The notes beneath the pieces were generated by a model. That model had not been told where the DNA came from, did no database searches, and was given only the letters and a program-made list of their open reading frames with translations. Of a stretch of DNA of 64,000 nucleotides, positions 2,895 to 56,780 are shown one piece after another. This DNA is from an uncultured bacterium (lineage in GTDB: Bacteria > UBP15 > UBA6099). Made by a program: the position numbers and the translations under genes. The DNA lies in assembly GCA_964409645.1 (NCBI GenBank), contig CAYPEK010000006.1, positions 16,823-80,822 on the forward strand, written 5' to 3'. Each line of letters opens with the position of its first letter. Position 1 is the first letter of the stretch.

Positions 2895-3304
2895 GCGCCG
2901 CCTCCCGCGCCTCGTACGGAGAGGATTTTCCCGACGCGTTCGAGCAGGTCGGCCTTTCTCACGGGTTTCGATATGAAATCGTCCGCAGGCAAAAAATCGG
3001 GGTCGGCGGGCCAGAAATCGACTCCGTAAACGTCGCCGACGCTCGTCACCATGACGACCGGTATGTTCTTCGTGTCCGGGTCTTTTTTCAGAACGCGGCA
3101 GTACTCGAATCCGAGCGTGTCGCCGTAAAAAATCACGTCGAGCAGGATAAGGTCGGGTTTCTCGCGCTTTGCGGTTTCGACGCCCGACTTCGGGTCGGAT
3201 TCGCCGAGCACCTGATAGTCCTGAGTTTCGAGGATTGTTGCTACTATGCTCCTGAAATCGGGGTCGTCGTCTATGATGAGAATGCGCGGGGGAGTCTGAT
3301 TCAT
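2891..3304 (-). CDS. Response regulator receiver protein
   Basis: MNQTPPRILIIDDDPDFRSIVATIL...DLILLDVIFYGD...KP forms a REC domain. Its stop shares an ATGA overlap with the downstream HK start. Confidence 0.9.
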   Translation of the reverse strand: MNQTPPRILIIDDDPDFRSIVATILETQDYQVLGESDPKSGVETAKREKPDLILLDVIFYGDTLGFEYCRVLKKDPDTKNIPVVMVTSVGDVYGVDFWPADPDFLPADDFISKPVRKADLLERVGKILSVRGAGGGA

Positions 3305-3379: not shown

Positions 3380-4876
3380 TTATTCCGACATTTCGGCTTT
3401 CCGCCTCACCGGCAGGTAAACCTTGAATGTGGAGCCCTCACCGAGTTTGGACTCCGCCGAAATCCTGCCGCCGTGCGCTTCAACTATTTCCTTAATTATC
3501 GAGAGGCCGAGCCCGGTGCCCGAAATTTTGTGCGTGGCCTCGTTTCTTACTCTGAAAAATTCCTCGAACAAGCGTGATACCGCCTCCTCGGGGATGCCGA
3601 TTCCCGTGTCGGCGCACTCGATCAGAACCTGATTCGACCCCTGCTTCCGCAGCGAGACTCTGACCGAGCCGCCCTTTTTGTTGTACTTGATCGCGTTCGA
3701 CACGAGGTTAGTCAACAGTTCTTCCATGTTGCCGCGGTCTGCGTCCACCTGCGGGAAATCCGGCTCGACGTCCAGCTTGAGCGTAACCTGCATTTCGTCC
3801 GCATTGACTTTCAGCAAAATTATCGTGTCGCGCGCGATCTCGTCCAGCGGCACCGGCTCAAAGTTGCGCCGCAGCAATCCGGAGCGCATCTTCATCACCG
3901 ACAGCAGGTCGCCGATCAGCTTCAACAGCGACGCCGCCCGCTCGCGGGACCGCTCGAGAACTTCCTTCTGCTTTTCCGGCTTGCCGTCCAGCAACCCGTC
4001 GAGTATCAGGTCGAGATACCCCTGTATAGCGCCCACCGGCGCCTTGAGCTCGTGCGCCACCATGCGCACGAAGTTGAATTTCGCCTTGTCCAACTCCTTG
4101 AGCTTCGTCACATCCCGCAGCACCGCCACCGATCCGAGCGTCTCGCCGCTCTCGTTGTACACCGGCGACAGCAGCACCGACAGCACCAGTTCGCTCTTCT
4201 TTCCGAGAGTGATTTCCTCCTCCATCTTGAAGAAACCGTGACCGTCGCTGTCCGAAACGCCCCTCAACGCGTCGCCGATCTTTTCCACCAGCTCCGCCGT
4301 CTTGTCGTTGTCCGGATCGTCCTCGTCGAGCAAGTCGCGCAGCGCAGGATTGGTCAGGACGATGCGCCCCTCGCTGTCCGTCACGATTATCCCGTCGCCG
4401 ATGCTTTCAAGGATCGTTTTCAGCCGTCCCTTCTCATACGCGATGTCCTTCAGGCTCCGCTCGCGCTCCTTGAGCAGCTTCCGCTCCACCTTGCGCAGCC
4501 GCACCGTCTCCTCCGCGCGCTGCATTATGTACAGAAGCTCGTCCGGCGTGAACGGTTTCGACAGGTAGTCGTACGCGCCGACTTTCATCGCCTCCACCGC
4601 CGACGAGATCGACGCGTAACCCGTGATGACGATCGGCACTATCTCCACGCCCTTGCGCCGGATCGCCTCGATGACCTCGATCCCGGACAGCTTCGGCATT
4701 TTCAGGTCGATTATCGCTATGTCGTATTCGCCCGCCTCGATTTTCTCAAGCCCGGCCTGCCCATCTTCGGCGGTGTCCACCACGTATCCGGCGTCTTTAA
4801 GGATTATCAGACACCCGTCCCTGATGGACTTCTCGTCGTCAACAACAATTACTTTTGTATGGGCAGCTTCCATCAA
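3380..4876 (-). CDS. Hybrid signalling protein: N-terminal receiver, PAS, then HisKA and HATPase_c
   Basis: The N-terminus VIVVDDEKSIRDGC...DIAIIDLKMP...KP is a REC domain. A central segment LKTILESIGDGIIVTDSEGRIV is PAS-like. HELKAPVGAI is the H-box, and NLVSNAIKY, DTGIGI and GTGLGLSI are the ATPase boxes. Confidence 0.9.
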   Translation of the reverse strand: MMEAAHTKVIVVDDEKSIRDGCLIILKDAGYVVDTAEDGQAGLEKIEAGEYDIAIIDLKMPKLSGIEVIEAIRRKGVEIVPIVITGYASISSAVEAMKVGAYDYLSKPFTPDELLYIMQRAEETVRLRKVERKLLKERERSLKDIAYEKGRLKTILESIGDGIIVTDSEGRIVLTNPALRDLLDEDDPDNDKTAELVEKIGDALRGVSDSDGHGFFKMEEEITLGKKSELVLSVLLSPVYNESGETLGSVAVLRDVTKLKELDKAKFNFVRMVAHELKAPVGAIQGYLDLILDGLLDGKPEKQKEVLERSRERAASLLKLIGDLLSVMKMRSGLLRRNFEPVPLDEIARDTIILLKVNADEMQVTLKLDVEPDFPQVDADRGNMEELLTNLVSNAIKYNKKGGSVRVSLRKQGSNQVLIECADTGIGIPEEAVSRLFEEFFRVRNEATHKISGTGLGLSIIKEIVEAHGGRISAESKLGEGSTFKVYLPVRRKAEMSE

Positions 4877-7860: not shown

Positions 7861-8883
7861 TCAGCAAATCCTCGGCAACTGCTCTCCCGCGAGCATGTCC
7901 ACTATTCGGGAGCCGCCGACCGCCGTCTTCAGCGCGGCCTTTCCCGGATGCGACTCAGTGACGACGCCGACCCGCGCCGCGCGGGCGCCAAGCGGGTGTG
8001 CCCTCATCGCCTCCAGAATCGCCGCCGATTTTTCCTTCGCGACGACGAGCGCTATTTTTCCCTCATTCGCAACATAAAGCGGGTCGAGCCCCAGCAGCTC
8101 GCACAATCCCTGAACGCCGTCCGACACCGGAATCGACTCCTCGTCGATTTCGATGCCGACTTTCGCTCCATCCGCGATCTCGTTCAGCACCGTCGCGAGC
8201 CCGCCGCGCGTTGCGTCACGCATGAAATGCACCGACCCCTGACCACCCGCATCCACCGCCGTGCGCACAAGCTCGGTCAGAGGCGCGCAGTCCGATTCCA
8301 CCGGGACGCTGAATTTCAGTCCCTCACGACACGCCATCACCGTCACGCCGTGGTCGCCGAGTGTTCCGCTCACGATTATTTCATCGCCGGGCCTGATGCT
8401 TCCCATCCCCGGCGCGGGGTCCATTTTAAGGACGCCGACTCCGGACGTGGTTATGAAAATTCCGTCGGCCGCGCCCTTTTCGACGACCTTCGTGTCGCCC
8501 GTCACTATCTTCACGTTGGCCGCGTCCAGCGCCGACTTCATCGACGCGAGAATACGCGCGAACTCATCGGCCGGCAGCCCTTCCTCTATTATAAAACCGC
8601 AAGAGAGGTAAAGCGGTTCCGCGCCCATCACGGCAATATCGTTCACGGTGCCGCAGACGGCGAGTTTTCCGATGTCGCCGCCCGGAAAAAATCGCGGCTT
8701 GACAACATAGCCGTCCGTCGTGAAAACGAGCGGCGACCGCGAGCCGCCCGTCTGACCGAACAGCACCGCCGCATCGTCGAGCGATTCCAGCAGCGAGTTC
8801 CCGAACGCTTCAAGGATCGCCCCCGAGATCAGGTCATGCGATTGCCTGCCGCCGCTGCCGTGCGCGAGTAGTATTTTTTCCAT
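7861..8883 (-). CDS. hypE: Hydrogenase expression/formation protein HypE
   Basis: The start is re-placed at MEKILLAHGSGG. The protein has a PurM/AIR-synthase-like fold and the hallmark HypE C-terminal ...PRIC tail. Confidence 0.9.
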   Translation of the reverse strand: MEKILLAHGSGGRQSHDLISGAILEAFGNSLLESLDDAAVLFGQTGGSRSPLVFTTDGYVVKPRFFPGGDIGKLAVCGTVNDIAVMGAEPLYLSCGFIIEEGLPADEFARILASMKSALDAANVKIVTGDTKVVEKGAADGIFITTSGVGVLKMDPAPGMGSIRPGDEIIVSGTLGDHGVTVMACREGLKFSVPVESDCAPLTELVRTAVDAGGQGSVHFMRDATRGGLATVLNEIADGAKVGIEIDEESIPVSDGVQGLCELLGLDPLYVANEGKIALVVAKEKSAAILEAMRAHPLGARAARVGVVTESHPGKAALKTAVGGSRIVDMLAGEQLPRIC

Positions 8884-24107: not shown

Positions 24108-25967
24108 ATGGCGGAACAGAAGAAAAAAATCTCTCTCGGTTACGCATGGTACGCGCTGTTTGTCATGTTCATGATAAACATGTTCAACTATGTCGATCGG
24201 CTGAGCCTCGGGCCGGCGATGGAGCACCTCAAGAGATACTTCGATGTGACGGATACAAAGATGGGCCTGATCCTCGGCGCGTTCACATTTGTATATGCGA
24301 TCATATCGCTGCCAATGGGGTTCCTGTCCGACCGCGGGAAGCGGACTTTTTTCGTCGGCCTCGGCGCGTTCGTGTGGAGCATAGCGGCGACCACATCGGG
24401 CTTTTGCAAAACATTCACGGGCTTTTTCGCGGCGCGTGCGGCGGTGGGGAGCGGCGAAGGAATTTATGCGCCGACGGGATCAGCGATCATAGCCGATTAT
24501 TTTCCGAGGGACAAACGCGCAACAGCAATCTCCATATTCATGTCGGCGATGCTGCTGGGTGGTGCGTTGGCACTCGTAGTAGCGGGCATGATAATCGACA
24601 AAACGGATAAGTTTGACCTGAGCAGGACCGCGAAACTCGTTCCGTATGAAAAAGGCGCGACGGTCGAAGGCTGGACATACGAGGGACAGATACAGACGCG
24701 CGACAGACATGTGTCATACGATTTCAAGAACGGAGCGGATACTTTGTCCGTCGTTTTGTCCAAACCGGATCTGAAAAAGAAGTCGGATGCATATACGAAA
24801 CTTTTCAATGTGGATTTTCGACTGAACGGAACTGCAGAACCTCAGGATGAGCAAAAAAAAGTTGCTGAATCGATAGTCAATCAGATCAGAGATCATGAGG
24901 ATGATGATTTTTCGACAATAAAAGCTGATATTAAAGACGATAAAAAAAGCCTTCTGTGCAAACTTTTTCCCACCTTATGTACATCAACCGGCAACATTGT
25001 AATTCCAAAAGAATATGCCGACAGACTGACGTACGACAAAGAGAAAAAAGAACTGGCATTTAAAGGAATTATGACTGTTAAGGATAAGAAAATCCTTAGA
25101 AACCTGTCCGACAACCCGAAATACCAGAATGCGCTTGTAGAGATATACAACTACTCGGCGTTCTACTATCGGCGGTCGGATAACTGGAAATGGATTTTCT
25201 GGATTCTAGGGCCTCCGGGGATTCTATTCGCGATTCTGGCGTTCGCGCTCAGAGAGCCTGTAAAAGGCGGCACCGAGGACTACCTGACGGAAGAGCAGGC
25301 GCTGAAAGTGGATGCGAAGGGAAGTATTGATTACTCGCCGCTCTGGAAGACTCCGTCGCTGGTGATAATGATGCTGTCGAACGTGATATTCACGGCGGCG
25401 GTCGGCGGGCTGAACATGTGGCTGTTCCCGTTCATTGAGCGATACAAAGATATGGAGTCAGCAACTGCCGCGATGAAGATCGGGCCAATCGTAATTGTGT
25501 CGATGGTCGTGGGCGTCATCCTCAGCGGAATCGTCTCCGACAAAATGTTCAAGAAGTCTAAACGGGCTTACAACTACATTCTGTTCGTCTGCATAACGCT
25601 GTCGATCCCGTTCCTTTACATTTTCGTGATGACGTTGAACTACTACGCGCTCATTGCGTCGGTGACGCTCGGAATGTTTCTGCTTTCATGGGTGAACGGC
25701 CCGCAGAACACGCTGCTCGTGTCGGTTGTCGATCCGAAACTTCGCGCCACGATGAACGCGGTGCATATCGTACTGATACACTGCCTAGGCGATGGCCCCT
25801 CGCCCATCATCATCGGCGCTCTCTCGGACAAATTCAGCCTGAAGTTCGCGTTCATGCTGCTGCCGATCGCGCTGTTCATCGGCGGGCTCGGGTTCCTGAT
25901 CGCGGGATATTTCGTGCCTAAGGACCTGCAGAAGCTTGAAGACAGGATGAAAAAGCAGGTAGCGTAA
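24108..25967 (+). CDS. MFS transporter with a roughly 190-aa low-GC insertion in the central cytoplasmic loop
   Basis: 12-TM MFS organisation is visible, with motif A-like GFLSDRGKR. Residues about 170-360 are hydrophilic and Lys/Asp-rich, and their DNA is about 40% GC versus about 60% for the rest of the gene. Confidence 0.85.
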   Translation: MAEQKKKISLGYAWYALFVMFMINMFNYVDRLSLGPAMEHLKRYFDVTDTKMGLILGAFTFVYAIISLPMGFLSDRGKRTFFVGLGAFVWSIAATTSGFCKTFTGFFAARAAVGSGEGIYAPTGSAIIADYFPRDKRATAISIFMSAMLLGGALALVVAGMIIDKTDKFDLSRTAKLVPYEKGATVEGWTYEGQIQTRDRHVSYDFKNGADTLSVVLSKPDLKKKSDAYTKLFNVDFRLNGTAEPQDEQKKVAESIVNQIRDHEDDDFSTIKADIKDDKKSLLCKLFPTLCTSTGNIVIPKEYADRLTYDKEKKELAFKGIMTVKDKKILRNLSDNPKYQNALVEIYNYSAFYYRRSDNWKWIFWILGPPGILFAILAFALREPVKGGTEDYLTEEQALKVDAKGSIDYSPLWKTPSLVIMMLSNVIFTAAVGGLNMWLFPFIERYKDMESATAAMKIGPIVIVSMVVGVILSGIVSDKMFKKSKRAYNYILFVCITLSIPFLYIFVMTLNYYALIASVTLGMFLLSWVNGPQNTLLVSVVDPKLRATMNAVHIVLIHCLGDGPSPIIIGALSDKFSLKFAFMLLPIALFIGGLGFLIAGYFVPKDLQKLEDRMKKQVA

Positions 25968-26002
25968 TCGGTTAAACCGAACTAAAAGAAATCAAATAAA
26001 AC

Positions 26003-26030
26003 GCGCGGTCTCACGGCCGCGCTTTTTTTT
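26003..26030 (+). terminator. Rho-independent terminator of the MFS gene
   Basis: The 8-bp stem GCGCGGTC-tcac-GGCCGCGC is followed by TTTTTTTT. Confidence 0.6.
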
Positions 26031-26042
26031 GCTGACGAAGCA

Positions 26043-26285
26043 CCCTCAAACAAGTTCCTGATTATACTCAATTTTCCGCTACCGTGTGAAAAAGGGTGTC
26101 AGGCCATGAATTGGGAATTGAGATTCCGAAAGTATCGAGAGTTTTTCGCCAATCAAATATATATATGAGCCAACAATCCTTTTCCCGATGCTTCTCAATT
26201 CCCAATTCACGGCCTGACACCAAAGTACAGTCAAAGAAATCAATACCTGCGGAGAATCAGGCATAATCAGGAACAAGTTCGAGGA
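26043..26285. repeat. 243-bp nested inverted-repeat element (MITE-like or structured RNA) between convergent genes
   Basis: The inner 29-bp inverted repeat is GGTGTCAGGCC(A/G)TGAATTGGGAATTGAGA (26095-26123, with its reverse complement at 26193-26221), separated by a 69-nt loop. The outer imperfect inverted repeat is CCTCAAACAAGTTCCTGATTAT (26043-26064) against ATAATCAGGAACAAGTTCGAGG (26264-26285). Confidence 0.5.
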
Positions 26286-26318
26286 TGGCACAAAATTTAA
26301 ACCGACACTATTATCGCG

Positions 26319-27062
26319 TCAGTCCTGTTTTTTCTCCTCCGCGAGTTTGGCGAGTCTGCCGTCCCAATACCTGTTCGCTTCGCTGATGTAGAGGTCGTGA
26401 GGGACGAGCGGCCTGTCGAGCGCCGCTTTCGTTTCGTCCGAAAGAGCGCCGTTTTCAACCACCTCGCGACCGGCTTTTTCCACTATTTTCAGGTATGCAT
26501 CGATGATCGGGCCGAGCGGCGTATTCTCCATGTTTTTCATCAGGATGCCCCCTCCCCTGTAAATCTCCGCGAGCACTTTGCCGTGAATCTGCCGCGCGAT
26601 CCTGTGGAACGAGAGACTTATGACCTGAAAATGGGACTGCTCAGGATAGCCGCAAGTCGATATGACAACGAAGCGTAGTTCTTTATCTCCCTTTTTTACA
26701 TGCCGCGACTCGCCGAGTTCGTCTTTTTCGATGTGGCAGTCCGCGGTGGGCGTCAGGCGGTCTAGAAAGTTCTTCATGACGCCGCTCACATTGTCGAGAT
26801 AGACCGGCGTGGCAAATACCGCGATGTCTGATTCGAGAGCCTTGTCGAGCAGTTCTTTCATGTCGTCCTTGATCGCGCAGATGCCGGGAGTTTTCGCCCA
26901 GCAGGACATGCAGGCAATGCACGGCTTGATGTTTTTGCGCGCGAGGAAGACAGATTCGACGTCGGCGCCGGCGGTTTGCGCTCCTTTTGCAAACGCGTCA
27001 ACGACTACCTGCGTGTTTCCGCTTCCCGCGTGAGGGCTTGAGTTGAATACGGTTATTTTCAT
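26319..27062 (-). CDS. Flavodoxin-like fold / NADPH-dependent FMN reductase family protein (possible iron-sulfur flavoprotein)
   Basis: MKITVFNSSPHAGSGNTQ...FATPVYLDNVSGVMKNFLDR is a flavodoxin-like FMN-binding loop pattern, with Cys pairs CIACMSC. Confidence 0.8.
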   Translation of the reverse strand: MKITVFNSSPHAGSGNTQVVVDAFAKGAQTAGADVESVFLARKNIKPCIACMSCWAKTPGICAIKDDMKELLDKALESDIAVFATPVYLDNVSGVMKNFLDRLTPTADCHIEKDELGESRHVKKGDKELRFVVISTCGYPEQSHFQVISLSFHRIARQIHGKVLAEIYRGGGILMKNMENTPLGPIIDAYLKIVEKAGREVVENGALSDETKAALDRPLVPHDLYISEANRYWDGRLAKLAEEKKQD

Positions 27063-27312
27063 TGATCGCTCCTGTCAGATATGTTGAGAAAGATTGTACC
27101 ACAAAGTAGTCATGCCGCGCTTGCTTGTGCTGAGTAAAATCATCAGGAACTCCTTCAAACAAACTCGATGACGGCACAGAATTCGTGGATAGCCGCAAAA
27201 TGGAATGAAAAGGCATTTTATTGCATTTTCCGGATTCGTGATTATTTATATTCTATAGTTATCATTAACCGGAGAGCGCGGCGGCGGACACGCTGTGCCG
27301 CGCGGCGAGACA

Positions 27313-50961: not shown

Positions 50962-52290
50962 ATGAAAACACAATACGACGTCGTTATAGTGGGAGCGGGA
51001 GTTGCGGGTTGCGTCATGGCGCGAGATCTTGCGCGTGAGGGTTTCTCCGTGGCCGTGATTGAGAAATCCAACCGGGAGTCGATGGGCCATGACTGGTGGG
51101 ACACAGTCGAGGCGCGAGTGTTCGACGAACTGGACATCCCCGCGCCGCCGCCGGAAGAGATAAAGGGCGCGTTCAATTTCCTTCTGTTTTCTCCCATGTC
51201 GTGCGTCAACATAATGGCGAGGATGCCTTCGTCACATCTGAATCTGGACCGGAAGAGTCTCGCAAAAAGACTGATCGCGCTCGCGGAGGCGGCCGGGGCC
51301 GAGATGTTTTTCGAGACGACGGCGCTCGAACCGATCGTCAACGACGGCGTTGTGGCCGGAGCTAAATATTCGCAAGACGGAAGCAACGGAACAGTCGCAG
51401 CGAAGATAACCGCCGACGCATCCGGAATCGACGGTGTTCTGCGCAGACATCTTCCGGAAACATACGGATTTAAGAATAAGCTCGAAAAAAACGAGACGAT
51501 AATCGCATACCGAGAGATTCGTGAGGACCTGACCGGCGGCAAGGGGCGCTCCATCCTCGTGCTCGGCAAATATGACGGCGTGCAGTGGGTCAGCCGGGAC
51601 ACGCCCGGCCTTGCGGACGTGAATGTGTGCATCCTCGCGTCATATCCGGACGGCGATCCGCATAAAATCCTCGAAGAGATCGTCGCGGAGGAAGGCGGAA
51701 TGGGCGACAAGGCGGTGCGCGGCGGAAAAGGCGGAAGAATTCCGCTGAGGAACGCGTTCGACTCGTTCGTCGCGCCGGGCTTTGTGCTGATCGGCGATAG
51801 CGCGAGCATGCCGAACCCTCTCAACGGCTCGGGCATCACGTCCGGGATGCGCGCGGCTCACTACGCTGCGAAAGCCGCGCGGGCCGCGCTCGCTCAAGGC
51901 CAAAACGACATCGCCTCGCTATGGAGCTACAACGTCGATTACAAAACGACTCAGGACTACAGATTCGTTCAACTGTACGTGTTGCAGAAGTACATATTCG
52001 CGGAAGAAAGAATATACCTCGACAAGATAATGAAGAGCGGCGCGTTCGACATCGACTGGGACATGGAATACAAGCTGTCTCCGAAGCACAATCTGAAAAA
52101 GCTTCCGGGGTTTATTAAGATGCTGCGCTACCCGGGATTTTTCGGGCGGCTCGCGAAGACGCTTTACCTGTCGAACGCGGTCGGAAAACATTTTAGGAAA
52201 TATCCGAAGGAATACGACCGGGAGAAGTTCGAACGCTGGTGCGCTCGGCTCGAAAAACTGATGAGGAAAATTCCGTTTAATCAGGGATAG
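50962..52290 (+). CDS. FAD-dependent oxidoreductase, geranylgeranyl reductase family
   Basis: The N-terminal dinucleotide fold is YDVVIVGAGVAGCVMARDLAREGFSVAVIEK. The GD motif is VLIGDSASMPNPLNGSGI. Confidence 0.85.
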   Translation: MKTQYDVVIVGAGVAGCVMARDLAREGFSVAVIEKSNRESMGHDWWDTVEARVFDELDIPAPPPEEIKGAFNFLLFSPMSCVNIMARMPSSHLNLDRKSLAKRLIALAEAAGAEMFFETTALEPIVNDGVVAGAKYSQDGSNGTVAAKITADASGIDGVLRRHLPETYGFKNKLEKNETIIAYREIREDLTGGKGRSILVLGKYDGVQWVSRDTPGLADVNVCILASYPDGDPHKILEEIVAEEGGMGDKAVRGGKGGRIPLRNAFDSFVAPGFVLIGDSASMPNPLNGSGITSGMRAAHYAAKAARAALAQGQNDIASLWSYNVDYKTTQDYRFVQLYVLQKYIFAEERIYLDKIMKSGAFDIDWDMEYKLSPKHNLKKLPGFIKMLRYPGFFGRLAKTLYLSNAVGKHFRKYPKEYDREKFERWCARLEKLMRKIPFNQG

Positions 52291-54656: not shown

Positions 54657-56780
54657 ATGTTTACTTACATAGCACTTGCCTTTCTGGTCATTTACGTCAT
54701 CTTGAGCATCTGCACCAATGCATACGTCGGGAAGGCGGAAAAAGCTATTGAGGAAGGCAATCACGACAAGGCTTTGAAAGCATATTCGAAGGCGCTTCTG
54801 TTTACTGTAAAAACCTATGACATTTTCAATCGGAAGGGGCTCGTCTATCTCGAAAAGGGAGATTACGGACAGGCAATAGACCATTTCGACAGAGCCATTA
54901 ACCTCAGACAAAATGATGCGGTGCTATACTACAATCGAGGAATCGCACACTACAGCAACGGAAATAATGAGGCCGCCGTTGAAGACTTCAAAAAATCGAT
55001 TTCGCTGAAATATAAAACAGAGAACGCGTACAACTACCTCGGCATCGCATACTGCCGAGTCAACAACTACGAGGGCGCAATCGACAGCTTTACAGCCGCC
55101 ATAGACATAAACCCGAAGAGAAGTATTTATTACATCAACCGCGGTTCCGCCCACGAATACAGAAACGACTACAGGCGCGCGATCGAGGATTACACGAGGG
55201 CGGTAGCAATCGAACCGGATAATCCTTCGACATATCTTGAAAGGTCGGACGCGTATCTCGAAAACGGAGATTACGACGAAGCGATAGACGACCTGAAAAA
55301 GGTGCGCGAGATCGATCCGAAATGCGGCGACATCGACAACAAGATAGGGATTGCGTATTACAGGAAAGGCGATTTCGAAAAAGCGTCGGAGTACTTCTCA
55401 CTCGAAATTCAGGAGGATCCCGGGACGGCGATTCTTTATCTGAATAGAGGTCTGTCATACTACGAAAAAGATGAATACGACAAGGCGATCGAAGATTATA
55501 CGCGCTCTCTGGAGTTGCGGCCCGGCAATCCCGAAGCTTACAAGCACAGGGGACACGCATACAGGAAGAAAGGCAATCCGGAATTCGCAGAGGCGGACTT
55601 CGACAAGATGGTAGAACTGGCTCAGGATGCGGCGGAGTCCTATATAGACCGCGGGCTTTTCCACAAAAAGCAGGAAAACTATACCAAGGCGCTTGAAGAT
55701 TTTAGAAAAGCAGTCTCGCTGGAACCCAGCCTGAGCGCGGGCTTCTATTTCATGGGCGAAACGCACAAGGAAATGGGTTTGTGCGAACTCGCGATCGACG
55801 ATTATACCCGAACGATCGAGCTGAGCCCGAACTACGATCAGGCATACTACGACCGCGGATTCATGCATCTGAAGGCAGGCAACGACAGACGAGCGATCGA
55901 GGATCTGGAGCAGACTGTTTCAAGCTATCAGGATTTCGGGGAGGCGTTCTTTTTTCTCGGCGTGGCCTACTCGAATGAGGGAAAATACGAGGAGGCGGTA
56001 AAAAATCTCGGAAAAGCGATCGAGTTGAATCCGGGATATACCGCCGCGTACAGATACCGGGGCTTCGCACGCTACTCACTCGGAGAGCTCGACGCAGCGA
56101 TAGAAGATTTGAACGCAGCGGTCGGAATGGCCCCCGAATACGACGAGGCACACTATAACCTCGGACTGGTGTATGCGGCTAAGGGCGATTACGACAAGGC
56201 GATTGAGTGCTACGACAGGGCGGCGGCGATAAATCCGAATCAGGCTGTGATCTACAACAGCCGAGGGCTCGCCCACGCGTGGAAAGGCGACAGCGATAAA
56301 GCGATCGAAGATTTCAATAAAAGCATCGATATCGAAGAGGACAATTTCAACTCGCACCTTTTCAGGGGCACCGCCTTCTTCGAGGGAGGGATCAGGCACC
56401 GGGCGCTTGACGACTTCAATCGTGCGGTGGAGATCGATCCGCTGCATCCGTCGGGATATAAACACCGCGGGATTTTTTATCTCAGGACGGAGAATTACGG
56501 CCGCGCGATAGAGGACTTCAGCAAAGCGCTCGAATGCCAGCCCGACTATGTCGAGGCGCTGAACCTGCGCGGAATCACATTCATCCATGCCGAGGAGTAC
56601 GACCGCGCAATAGAAGACCTTTCGAGTGTGATCGAGAAGTCGCCGGATTTCGCGTCGGCATACTACAATAGAAGTATCGCCTACGGAAAAAAAGACATGA
56701 CCGAGTACGCAATGAAGGATTACAAGAAATTCATGGAACTGGAACCGGACGGATTCCGGGGCGAGGAAAAACACTTTTAA
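54657..56780 (+). CDS. TPR repeat protein (about 18 TPR units) with one N-terminal TM anchor
   Basis: The TM anchor is MFTYIALAFLVIYVILSIC. The rest is uninterrupted 34-residue repeats of the W-LG-Y-A-F-A-P type. Confidence 0.8.
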   Translation: MFTYIALAFLVIYVILSICTNAYVGKAEKAIEEGNHDKALKAYSKALLFTVKTYDIFNRKGLVYLEKGDYGQAIDHFDRAINLRQNDAVLYYNRGIAHYSNGNNEAAVEDFKKSISLKYKTENAYNYLGIAYCRVNNYEGAIDSFTAAIDINPKRSIYYINRGSAHEYRNDYRRAIEDYTRAVAIEPDNPSTYLERSDAYLENGDYDEAIDDLKKVREIDPKCGDIDNKIGIAYYRKGDFEKASEYFSLEIQEDPGTAILYLNRGLSYYEKDEYDKAIEDYTRSLELRPGNPEAYKHRGHAYRKKGNPEFAEADFDKMVELAQDAAESYIDRGLFHKKQENYTKALEDFRKAVSLEPSLSAGFYFMGETHKEMGLCELAIDDYTRTIELSPNYDQAYYDRGFMHLKAGNDRRAIEDLEQTVSSYQDFGEAFFFLGVAYSNEGKYEEAVKNLGKAIELNPGYTAAYRYRGFARYSLGELDAAIEDLNAAVGMAPEYDEAHYNLGLVYAAKGDYDKAIECYDRAAAINPNQAVIYNSRGLAHAWKGDSDKAIEDFNKSIDIEEDNFNSHLFRGTAFFEGGIRHRALDDFNRAVEIDPLHPSGYKHRGIFYLRTENYGRAIEDFSKALECQPDYVEALNLRGITFIHAEEYDRAIEDLSSVIEKSPDFASAYYNRSIAYGKKDMTEYAMKDYKKFMELEPDGFRGEEKHF

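Follow-up and report, generated by a model that had tools for sequence, protein, structure and literature searches.

A strain-polymorphic 215-bp hairpin element, probably of MITE type, between convergent genes of an uncultured bacterium

The locus lies in a 64-kb window (the whole stretch of DNA that was analysed, 64,000 nucleotides) from an uncultured bacterium, where a gene for an MFS transporter (24108-25967, + strand) and a gene for a flavodoxin-like FMN reductase (26319-27062, - strand) converge. The MFS gene is followed by an intrinsic terminator, with a hairpin at 26003-26022 and then T8, which was called on the - strand too and is thus bidirectional. A nested inverted repeat is located between this terminator and the FMN-reductase stop codon at 26319. 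The nesting had been described in an initial annotation and was recovered here by repeat search: the inner arms (26095-26123 and 26193-26221) are 29 nt long with 1 mismatch and enclose a 69-nt AT-rich loop (37.7% GC), and the outer arms (26041-26079 and 26249-26287) are 39 nt long and 77% complementary. The expected number of chance occurrences of the inner-arm sequence in the window is 0.00. Folding of a 261-nt region gave -100.1 kcal/mol for the + strand and -116.8 kcal/mol for the - strand, compared with about -52 and -66 for shuffled sequences (z = -10.4 for both strands), and the whole element matches its own reverse complement at ~63%, making it a single long imperfect palindrome. The 366 bp that span the locus are identical in three independent public assemblies (ENA, NCBI and JGI), so the structure is not an artefact of assembly.

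Orthologues of the MFS protein form a graded series, and the closest of them (P0002) comes from the Logan runs ERR7570006/03/ERR7569998. On its contigs, L132, L133 and L134, the gene order LeuRS-MFS-FMN reductase is kept and the DNA is 97.2% identical to the window over 10.7 kb; they therefore represent another strain of the same species. The spacer between the MFS and FMN-reductase genes is 140 bp in this sister strain versus 351 bp in the window, with near-identical flanks and a clean gap, and all three contigs lack the element and read CCCTCAAACAAGTT|TGAGG without interruption. The empty site reads ...CCCTCAAACAAGTT|TGAGGATGG... (in a longer form, ...GCGCCCTCAAACAAGTT|TGAGGATGGCGC...) and the window reads ...CCCTCA[AACAAGTT]-215 bp-[AACAAGTT]CGAGGATGG... 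(in a longer form, ...GCACCCTCA[AACAAGTT]CCTGATTATAC...215 bp...GCATAATCAGG[AACAAGTT]CGAGGATGGCAC...). The sequence AACAAGTT, present in one copy in the empty site, is found in two in the window, an exact 8-bp duplication. Read literally the direct repeat is 9 nt (AACAAGTTC), the ninth position of the empty site being T, and from these alignments the target-site duplication would be 8 bp, possibly 9 bp; the shorter length is a better fit to the symmetry of the target and to a second copy, described below. Whether the window strain gained the element or the sister strain lost it precisely, both imply mobility. In the distant MFS orthologues (among P0003, P0004, P0005 and P0006) the MFS/FMN_red adjacency is lost, or the sequence ends at the gene.

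A small palindrome, CCTCAAAC-AA-GTTTGAGG, already existed at the target and has the insertion at its exact centre, and this bears on the extent of the element, which had been annotated at first as 243 bp (26043-26285) with outer arms of about 22 bp and 4 mismatches. Such stretches do exist (26043-26064 and 26264-26285), inside the 39-nt outer arms, but the outermost 14 nt of each are target palindrome and duplication and fall outside the element, whose true limits by alignment to the empty site are 26057-26271 (215 bp). Each 22-nt arm is composed of 6 nt of the old palindrome, the 8-nt duplication and the first 8 nt of the true terminal repeat, and two adjacent mismatches occur in these arms because the duplication, AAC-AA-GTT, is only nearly self-complementary. 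The double inverted-repeat organisation that had been proposed needs the same correction, since part of its outer repeat is target DNA plus duplication. The terminal inverted repeats begin exactly at the insertion junctions, the element opening with CCTGATTAT and finishing with ATAATCAGG, and CCTGATTAT is perfect at both ends. The features of the locus are as follows; L037 and L099 are, among the matches listed in a metagenome scan, two further contigs from the JGI metagenome that also holds the window's locus.

25995-26030, unstranded: bidirectional intrinsic terminator of the MFS gene (+) and presumably also of the FMN-reductase gene (-), from repeat and terminator scans
26044-26051, unstranded: left half of the target palindrome, CCTCAAAC of CCTCAAAC-AA-GTTTGAGG; overlaps the duplication, and the palindrome is intact in the L132 empty site
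26049-26056, unstranded: left copy of the target-site duplication, AACAAGTT, single in the empty site; 9 nt (AACAAGTTC) if 26057 is counted
26057-26271, unstranded: inserted element proper, 215 bp, 41.9% GC, CCTGATTATAC...GCATAATCAGG; missing at the orthologous site of L132, L133 and L134, junctions placed by alignment
26057-26079, + strand: left terminal inverted repeat, CCTGATTATACTCAATTTTCCGC; 17/23 against the reverse complement of 26249-26271, first 9 positions perfect
26061-26090, - strand: outward sigma-70-like motif TTCACA-N18-TATAAT in the left end, 11/12, a match to the consensus only
26087-26229, unstranded: core module common with the short copy L099, TGAAAAAGGGTGTCAGG...CCTGACACCAAAGTACA; 90% identity to L099 3070-3210
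26095-26123, + strand: inner left arm, GGTGTCAGGCCATGAATTGGGAATTGAGA, where conservation in the family is highest; 29/29 in L099, 26/29 in L037
26124-26192, unstranded: central AT-rich segment, 69 nt, partly self-pairing, from the fold and composition
26193-26221, - strand: inner right arm, TCTCAATTCCCAATTCACGGCCTGACACC, pairing with 26095-26123
26249-26271, - strand: right terminal inverted repeat, reverse complement CCTGATTATGCCTGATTCTCCGC, paired with 26057-26079
26272-26279, unstranded: right copy of the target-site duplication, AACAAGTT, from the empty-site alignment; 9 nt if 26280 is counted
26277-26284, unstranded: right half of the target palindrome, GTTCGAGG, which is GTTTGAGG in the empty site, from the empty-site alignment

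The -10 hexamer of the sigma-70-like motif is part of the left terminal repeat. The equivalent end of L037 carries TTGACA-N15-TATAAT, a spacing outside what the promoter scan accepts.

Further differences between the two strains were observed on either side of the insertion. Within the MFS gene, positions 24827-25031 of the window form a low-GC stretch (0.35-0.40 vs about 0.55), the only part that could not be aligned with the sister strain (97% identical), nor did it align with an 81%-identical relative; the difference in MFS length to the sister strain is 45 bp (619 vs 604 aa), and the next 1 kb is only 90.8% identical. This stretch is a hypervariable or replaced transporter loop region. On the other side, L132 (12782-12822), L133 and L134 all leave the window sequence at the same base, equivalent to window position 27145, which lies between the FMN-reductase gene and a B12-radical SAM gene. 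The three contigs end 41 bp past this divergence with GGTGCGCCGGGTGTTAAACGGCGAGTAGAATTGACCCCTTA, which neither the window nor any other locus contains. It may be the terminus of another repeat or IS, or else reflect a rearrangement, specific to the strain, on the upstream side of the radical SAM gene.

Additional copies were sought in several collections. The 64-kb window contains no second copy; in 185,579 representative genomes an exact 20-mer from the arm gave three single-arm chance matches and no real copy; and no copy was found by BLASTN among plasmids and phages or by three pattern scans of viral contigs. A viral match, L140, was discarded as an 18-mer coincidence without a partner arm. 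The arm scan of metagenomes listed at least 120 loci, nearly all of them chance 18-mers; others were set aside as unrelated to the element, L021, L043 and L106 being inverted arrays of a GAATTGG-type heptamer repeat and L084 a 1-kb inverted duplication of a gene.

A full-length relative, about 201 bp long, is present in L037 (415-615), and both of its arms match those of the window at 26/29 positions (26/29 and 26/29). The loop is homologous only in the opposite orientation, at 43/69 positions (62%), with an alignment score of 16 against -9.8 +/- 4.3 for shuffles, 0/2000 of which were as good. One end, AGATTATACGATATGCCGC, resembles the left terminal repeat of the window, and the flanks, GGTTGCGC and TGTTGCGC, form a 7/8 duplication of this copy's own. 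The copy (positions 408-419 and 617-640 of L037) interrupts an epimerase (HldD-like) gene in its last codons, an [FeFe]-hydrogenase-like gene lying downstream, and the epimerase stop codon (TGA, 417-419) now lies inside the element, so that the protein ends ...EKVAR*. Removing the element would restore ...EKVALVARK*, and the uninterrupted 3' end of the epimerase gene that is expected for an empty L037 site would be ...GAGAAGGTTGCGCTGGTGGCACGAAAATGA.

In L099 only the 143-bp core is present (3069-3211), 90% identical and without terminal repeats. This core directly follows the terminator of a GH3 beta-glucosidase gene and precedes a convergent gene, a placement like that of the window element. 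On both sides it is bordered by TTTTAATT, an AT-rich terminator sequence, and given this composition the match could be due to chance and is weaker evidence of a duplication. Unlike the target in the window, those of L037 and L099 are not palindromes. No empty site was found for L099, as the only close GH3 orthologue also carries the element: it is present on the sister-strain contigs of the GH3 locus, L136 and L137, both of which break inside the left arm. Both are 97.2% identical to L099, which places these loci in the same species pair. L136 itself begins with the right arm and continues into a different flank, which lies upstream of a GH38 gene; this contig-end fragment represents a fourth locus.

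The family therefore comprises four or more loci of this species or metagenome, in a long form (about 200-215 bp) and a short form (143 bp), all with the strongly conserved 29-bp inverted repeat. The Logan contigs start or end inside the arms of the element (L136 at 1-34 and 8214-8251, L137 at 4436-4471), which indicates that the repeat fragments short-read assemblies of this species. Presence of the family in both strains, a site filled in one strain only and assemblies broken at the arms are all expected of a dispersed repeat. The initial annotation had proposed searching for additional copies and for flanking target duplications, and both were found, at no fewer than three other loci (L037, L099 and L136) and as AACAAGTT on both sides of the element in the window.

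A MITE or a structured ncRNA had been the two readings offered at first for this structure, and it is the former that the empty site, the 8-bp duplication and the copies at unrelated loci support. An ncRNA gene or cis-regulatory RNA, with the long hairpin as its functional product made from the - strand, would be in keeping with the very stable fold, which is better on that strand (-116.8 vs -100.1 kcal/mol) because most of the arm mismatches turn into G-U there, with the sigma-70-like motif on the - strand and with one symmetric double change in the arms (GGTGTC..GACACC vs GGGGTC..GACCCC). This is nevertheless very improbable, as the orthologous site of the 97.2%-identical strain has no element, a target duplication flanks it, and the gene contexts differ: convergent genes surround two copies, and the third lies between co-directional genes and overlaps a stop codon. 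The arms argue in the same direction: 27/28 pairs show no compensatory change, so that conservation is of sequence and the covariation that the initial annotation had suggested looking for did not emerge, and the mismatched arm pair reads A-C in L099 and the window but G-T in L037, which favours neither strand consistently. At gathering thresholds Rfam gave no match in the whole window, and its best sub-threshold match to the element was a plant microRNA hairpin model (36 bits vs 135), eukaryotic microRNA precursors merely reflecting the long hairpin. A separate sub-threshold Rfam match, to PrrB/RsmZ, covers the 3' end of the MFS gene and its terminator (25913-26029; 27.3 bits vs 44 for gathering, E = 4.6e-4), and is most likely driven by the terminator hairpin.

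The position of the element between convergent genes and beside a terminator, in both the window and L099, is what would be seen if it served as a terminator or attenuator hairpin for these genes. The main hairpin however has no T-run on either strand and was not called by the terminator scan, which found just a weak 7-pair site in the right end of the element, and the L037 copy lies between co-directional genes and overlaps a stop codon. A canonical bidirectional terminator moreover exists at 26003-26022 and suffices in the strain that lacks the element, where it is the sole terminator between the convergent genes. A role in termination is thus barely credible, and the earlier statement that the element follows the MFS gene's own terminator and is not needed for termination is borne out. 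As the element is located between the FMN-reductase stop codon and the shared bidirectional terminator, it probably forms part of the FMN-reductase 3' UTR and would be transcribed there as a very stable hairpin.

The conserved part of the family is not where it would usually be in a MITE, in that copies differ more in their terminal repeats than in the internal arms. The window and L037 differ at 6/58 positions in the arms and at 26/69 in the loop (Fisher p = 4e-4), and the symmetric double change noted above is T-A to G-C in L037. In a common register the single arm mismatch concerns the same base pair (26106 / 26210 in the window, 464 / 568 in L037) but on opposite arms, the window and L099 differing in this from L037, and each time it is CACGG to CATGG, a C-to-T change at a CpG in one of the two motifs. 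This site could be hypermutable (perhaps methylated), or there could be selection against a perfect long palindrome. The pattern suggests that propagation depends on the inner arms as well as on the termini, which would also explain a mobile short form.

Several ways of accounting for this pattern were weighed. Since the arms are near-invariant while the loops drift to 62% identity, and in view of the symmetric double change and the CACGG-to-CATGG change on opposite arms, the core hairpin could be a selected module, although this is rather unlikely; it would be either a recognition hairpin for a type of transposase not yet described or a 3'-UTR or protein-binding element recruited by the host. 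The former would mean that such a transposase also mobilises the short form that lacks termini, and for the latter it can be said that the element lies between a stop codon and a shared bidirectional terminator in both the window and L099. The conservation of an internal imperfect hairpin with a recurrent single mismatch, and not of the termini, is also reminiscent of REP/RAYT elements or of hairpin elements derived from IS200/IS605 (PATE), which would have been moved as single-stranded DNA by a tyrosine/HUH transposase. REP/RAYT and IS200/IS605-derived elements are not known to make target-site duplications or to have terminal inverted repeats, however, and here there is an exact 8-bp duplication against the empty site, a 7/8 duplication in L037, and terminal repeats are present, which makes an origin of this kind highly unlikely.

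It is possible, if somewhat doubtful, that the element in the window is a composite, in which the 143-bp core hairpin (26087-26229), itself mobile, landed in a 72-bp mini-MITE (26057-26086 + 26230-26271) and the whole then moved via its outer ends. The core is found alone in L099 with TTTTAATT on both sides, once it is taken out of the window copy the outer parts make up a plausible inverted repeat of 23 nt with a short loop, and nested insertion of small repeats has been documented for pneumococcal repeats (PMC10969869). On the other hand the core has no duplication around it inside the window copy (GCTACCGT on one side and TCAAAGAA on the other), and no solo outer element was seen. The sequence flanking L099 is AT-rich and belongs to a terminator, where an 8-nt match is less surprising, and L099 could equally be a terminally deleted copy.

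A single non-autonomous element of MITE type is the preferred reading, and the features by which prokaryotic MITEs are defined (PMC10969869) can be recognised in it. Such elements are typically under 500 bp, and the copies here are 215 bp, about 201 bp (L037) and 143 bp (L099). Terminal inverted repeats, which in MITEs are about 4-30 bp, are present in the window copy and absent from the short copy L099, and direct repeats were found both in the window, where AACAAGTT is single in the empty site and double in the filled one, and in L037 (GGTTGCGC / TGTTGCGC). The element is non-coding, the longest ORFs being 70, 56 and 51 aa with no match in Pfam, is dispersed over at least four loci, and is AT-rich (41.9% vs 55.3% GC for the window) with a stable stem-loop (z = -10.4). 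With its structure, junctions, empty allele, duplication, dispersed copies and lack of coding capacity all demonstrated, the element is very probably a non-autonomous DNA transposon of MITE type that is polymorphic between strains. Judged by sequence, it appears to belong to a new MITE family, with no match in the representative-genome, plasmid, phage and viral collections searched.

Known prokaryotic MITEs such as the Correia (NEMIS) elements of Neisseria, MITEAba12, QMITE1/2 and BrickBuilt (PMC10969869) resemble the element in being shorter than 500 bp, AT-rich and mostly intergenic, in having terminal inverted repeats and duplications but no transposase, and in their very stable stem-loop, sigma-70-like end motif and strain polymorphism. 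The element in the window differs from them in that its internal arms are better conserved than its termini. Correia elements have a TA target duplication and 26-bp terminal repeats of the Neisseria type; the window element does not match these, with its 8-9 bp duplication AACAAGTT(C) and no sequence similarity in the searched collections. The ERIC / IRU and Ypal-type palindromes of enterobacteria are about 130-170 bp long, occur in transcribed intergenic regions near gene ends and have long and short variants with indels at defined places. The likeness to the element is one of shape only, an imperfect palindrome in long and short variants. ERIC elements are not known to have a clear target duplication or demonstrated mobility, and the window element differs from them in its junction evidence and empty site, with no sequence relationship and no Rfam match.

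With regard to the IS4 family, the left end of the element, CTGATTATACTCAATT, aligns with the outside end of Tn5/IS50, CTGACTCTTATACACAAGT, with a 3-nt gap and 14 matches (shuffle p about 0.002, uncorrected for the choice of comparator), and the sequence of this outside end, CTGACTCTTATACACAAGT, was confirmed in Tn5 papers. The right end of the element is unlike it (p = 0.23), and no IS4-type transposase could be tied to the element. IS50 and IS10 make 9-bp duplications, and the direct repeat in the window can be read as 8 or 9 nt (AACAAGTTC); a relationship to IS4/IS50 may be taken as a lead only. IS1397 and ISKpn1 are autonomous IS3-family elements with 3-4-bp duplications that target the palindrome loops of REP/BIME units. 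The window element is alike in that its insertion is centred on a palindrome, but it is the only such case, the targets of L037 and L099 being non-palindromic.

The search for an autonomous element with matching ends was negative in plasmids, phages and viral contigs, and a sequence resembling the terminal repeat at window positions 52275-52285 was rejected because it falls within a coding region and is no better than chance. ORFs read through the element gave no candidate among 5.8 billion protein clusters, and among 1.8 billion representatives they gave three long proteins with weak multi-stretch matches, which were taken as unrelated. No paper was matched by the inner-arm sequence in the literature. 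Movement of the element would be transposase-mediated, either by cut-and-paste or by copy-in. A transposase encoded elsewhere presumably binds the repeats and moved the element into the centre of the palindrome downstream of the MFS terminator; a staggered cut of 8 or 9 bp in the target, filled in by repair, would give the duplication. The 29-bp inverted repeat is probably required by the transposase or by a transposition intermediate.

By analogy with other MITEs, plausible effects on the host would be those of a structured insertion in a 3' UTR, of an outward promoter and of the truncation of the last codons of the epimerase in L037. For annotation, the element accounts for a conspicuous hairpin that one might take for an sRNA or a regulatory structure. 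It also represents an insertion polymorphism between strains of an uncultured bacterium and explains breaks in short-read assemblies at these sites, and it can serve as the seed for a repeat-family model that would aid genome assembly and comparison.

Elsewhere in the window, a different set of repeats was observed around a gene of the PD-(D/E)XK nuclease superfamily, which lies between inverted arrays at 536-1490 (PF13366 PDDEXK_3, 847-1251, E = 3e-43). A small GC hairpin, GGCCTCTGACGAGGCC, occurs there in five copies, three of them direct (541, 618 and 697, at 77-79-bp spacing) and two inverted (1275 and 1433), accompanied by CACAAAGACACCAAGACAC-type repeats, and the overall arms (624-718 / 1360-1454) are 95 nt long and 80% matched. 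This locus looks like a gene cassette framed by repeat arrays and is unrelated in sequence to the hairpin element. Finally, coding repeats with spacings in multiples of 102 nt (34 aa), which are putatively TPR-like, are present at 55168-56516.
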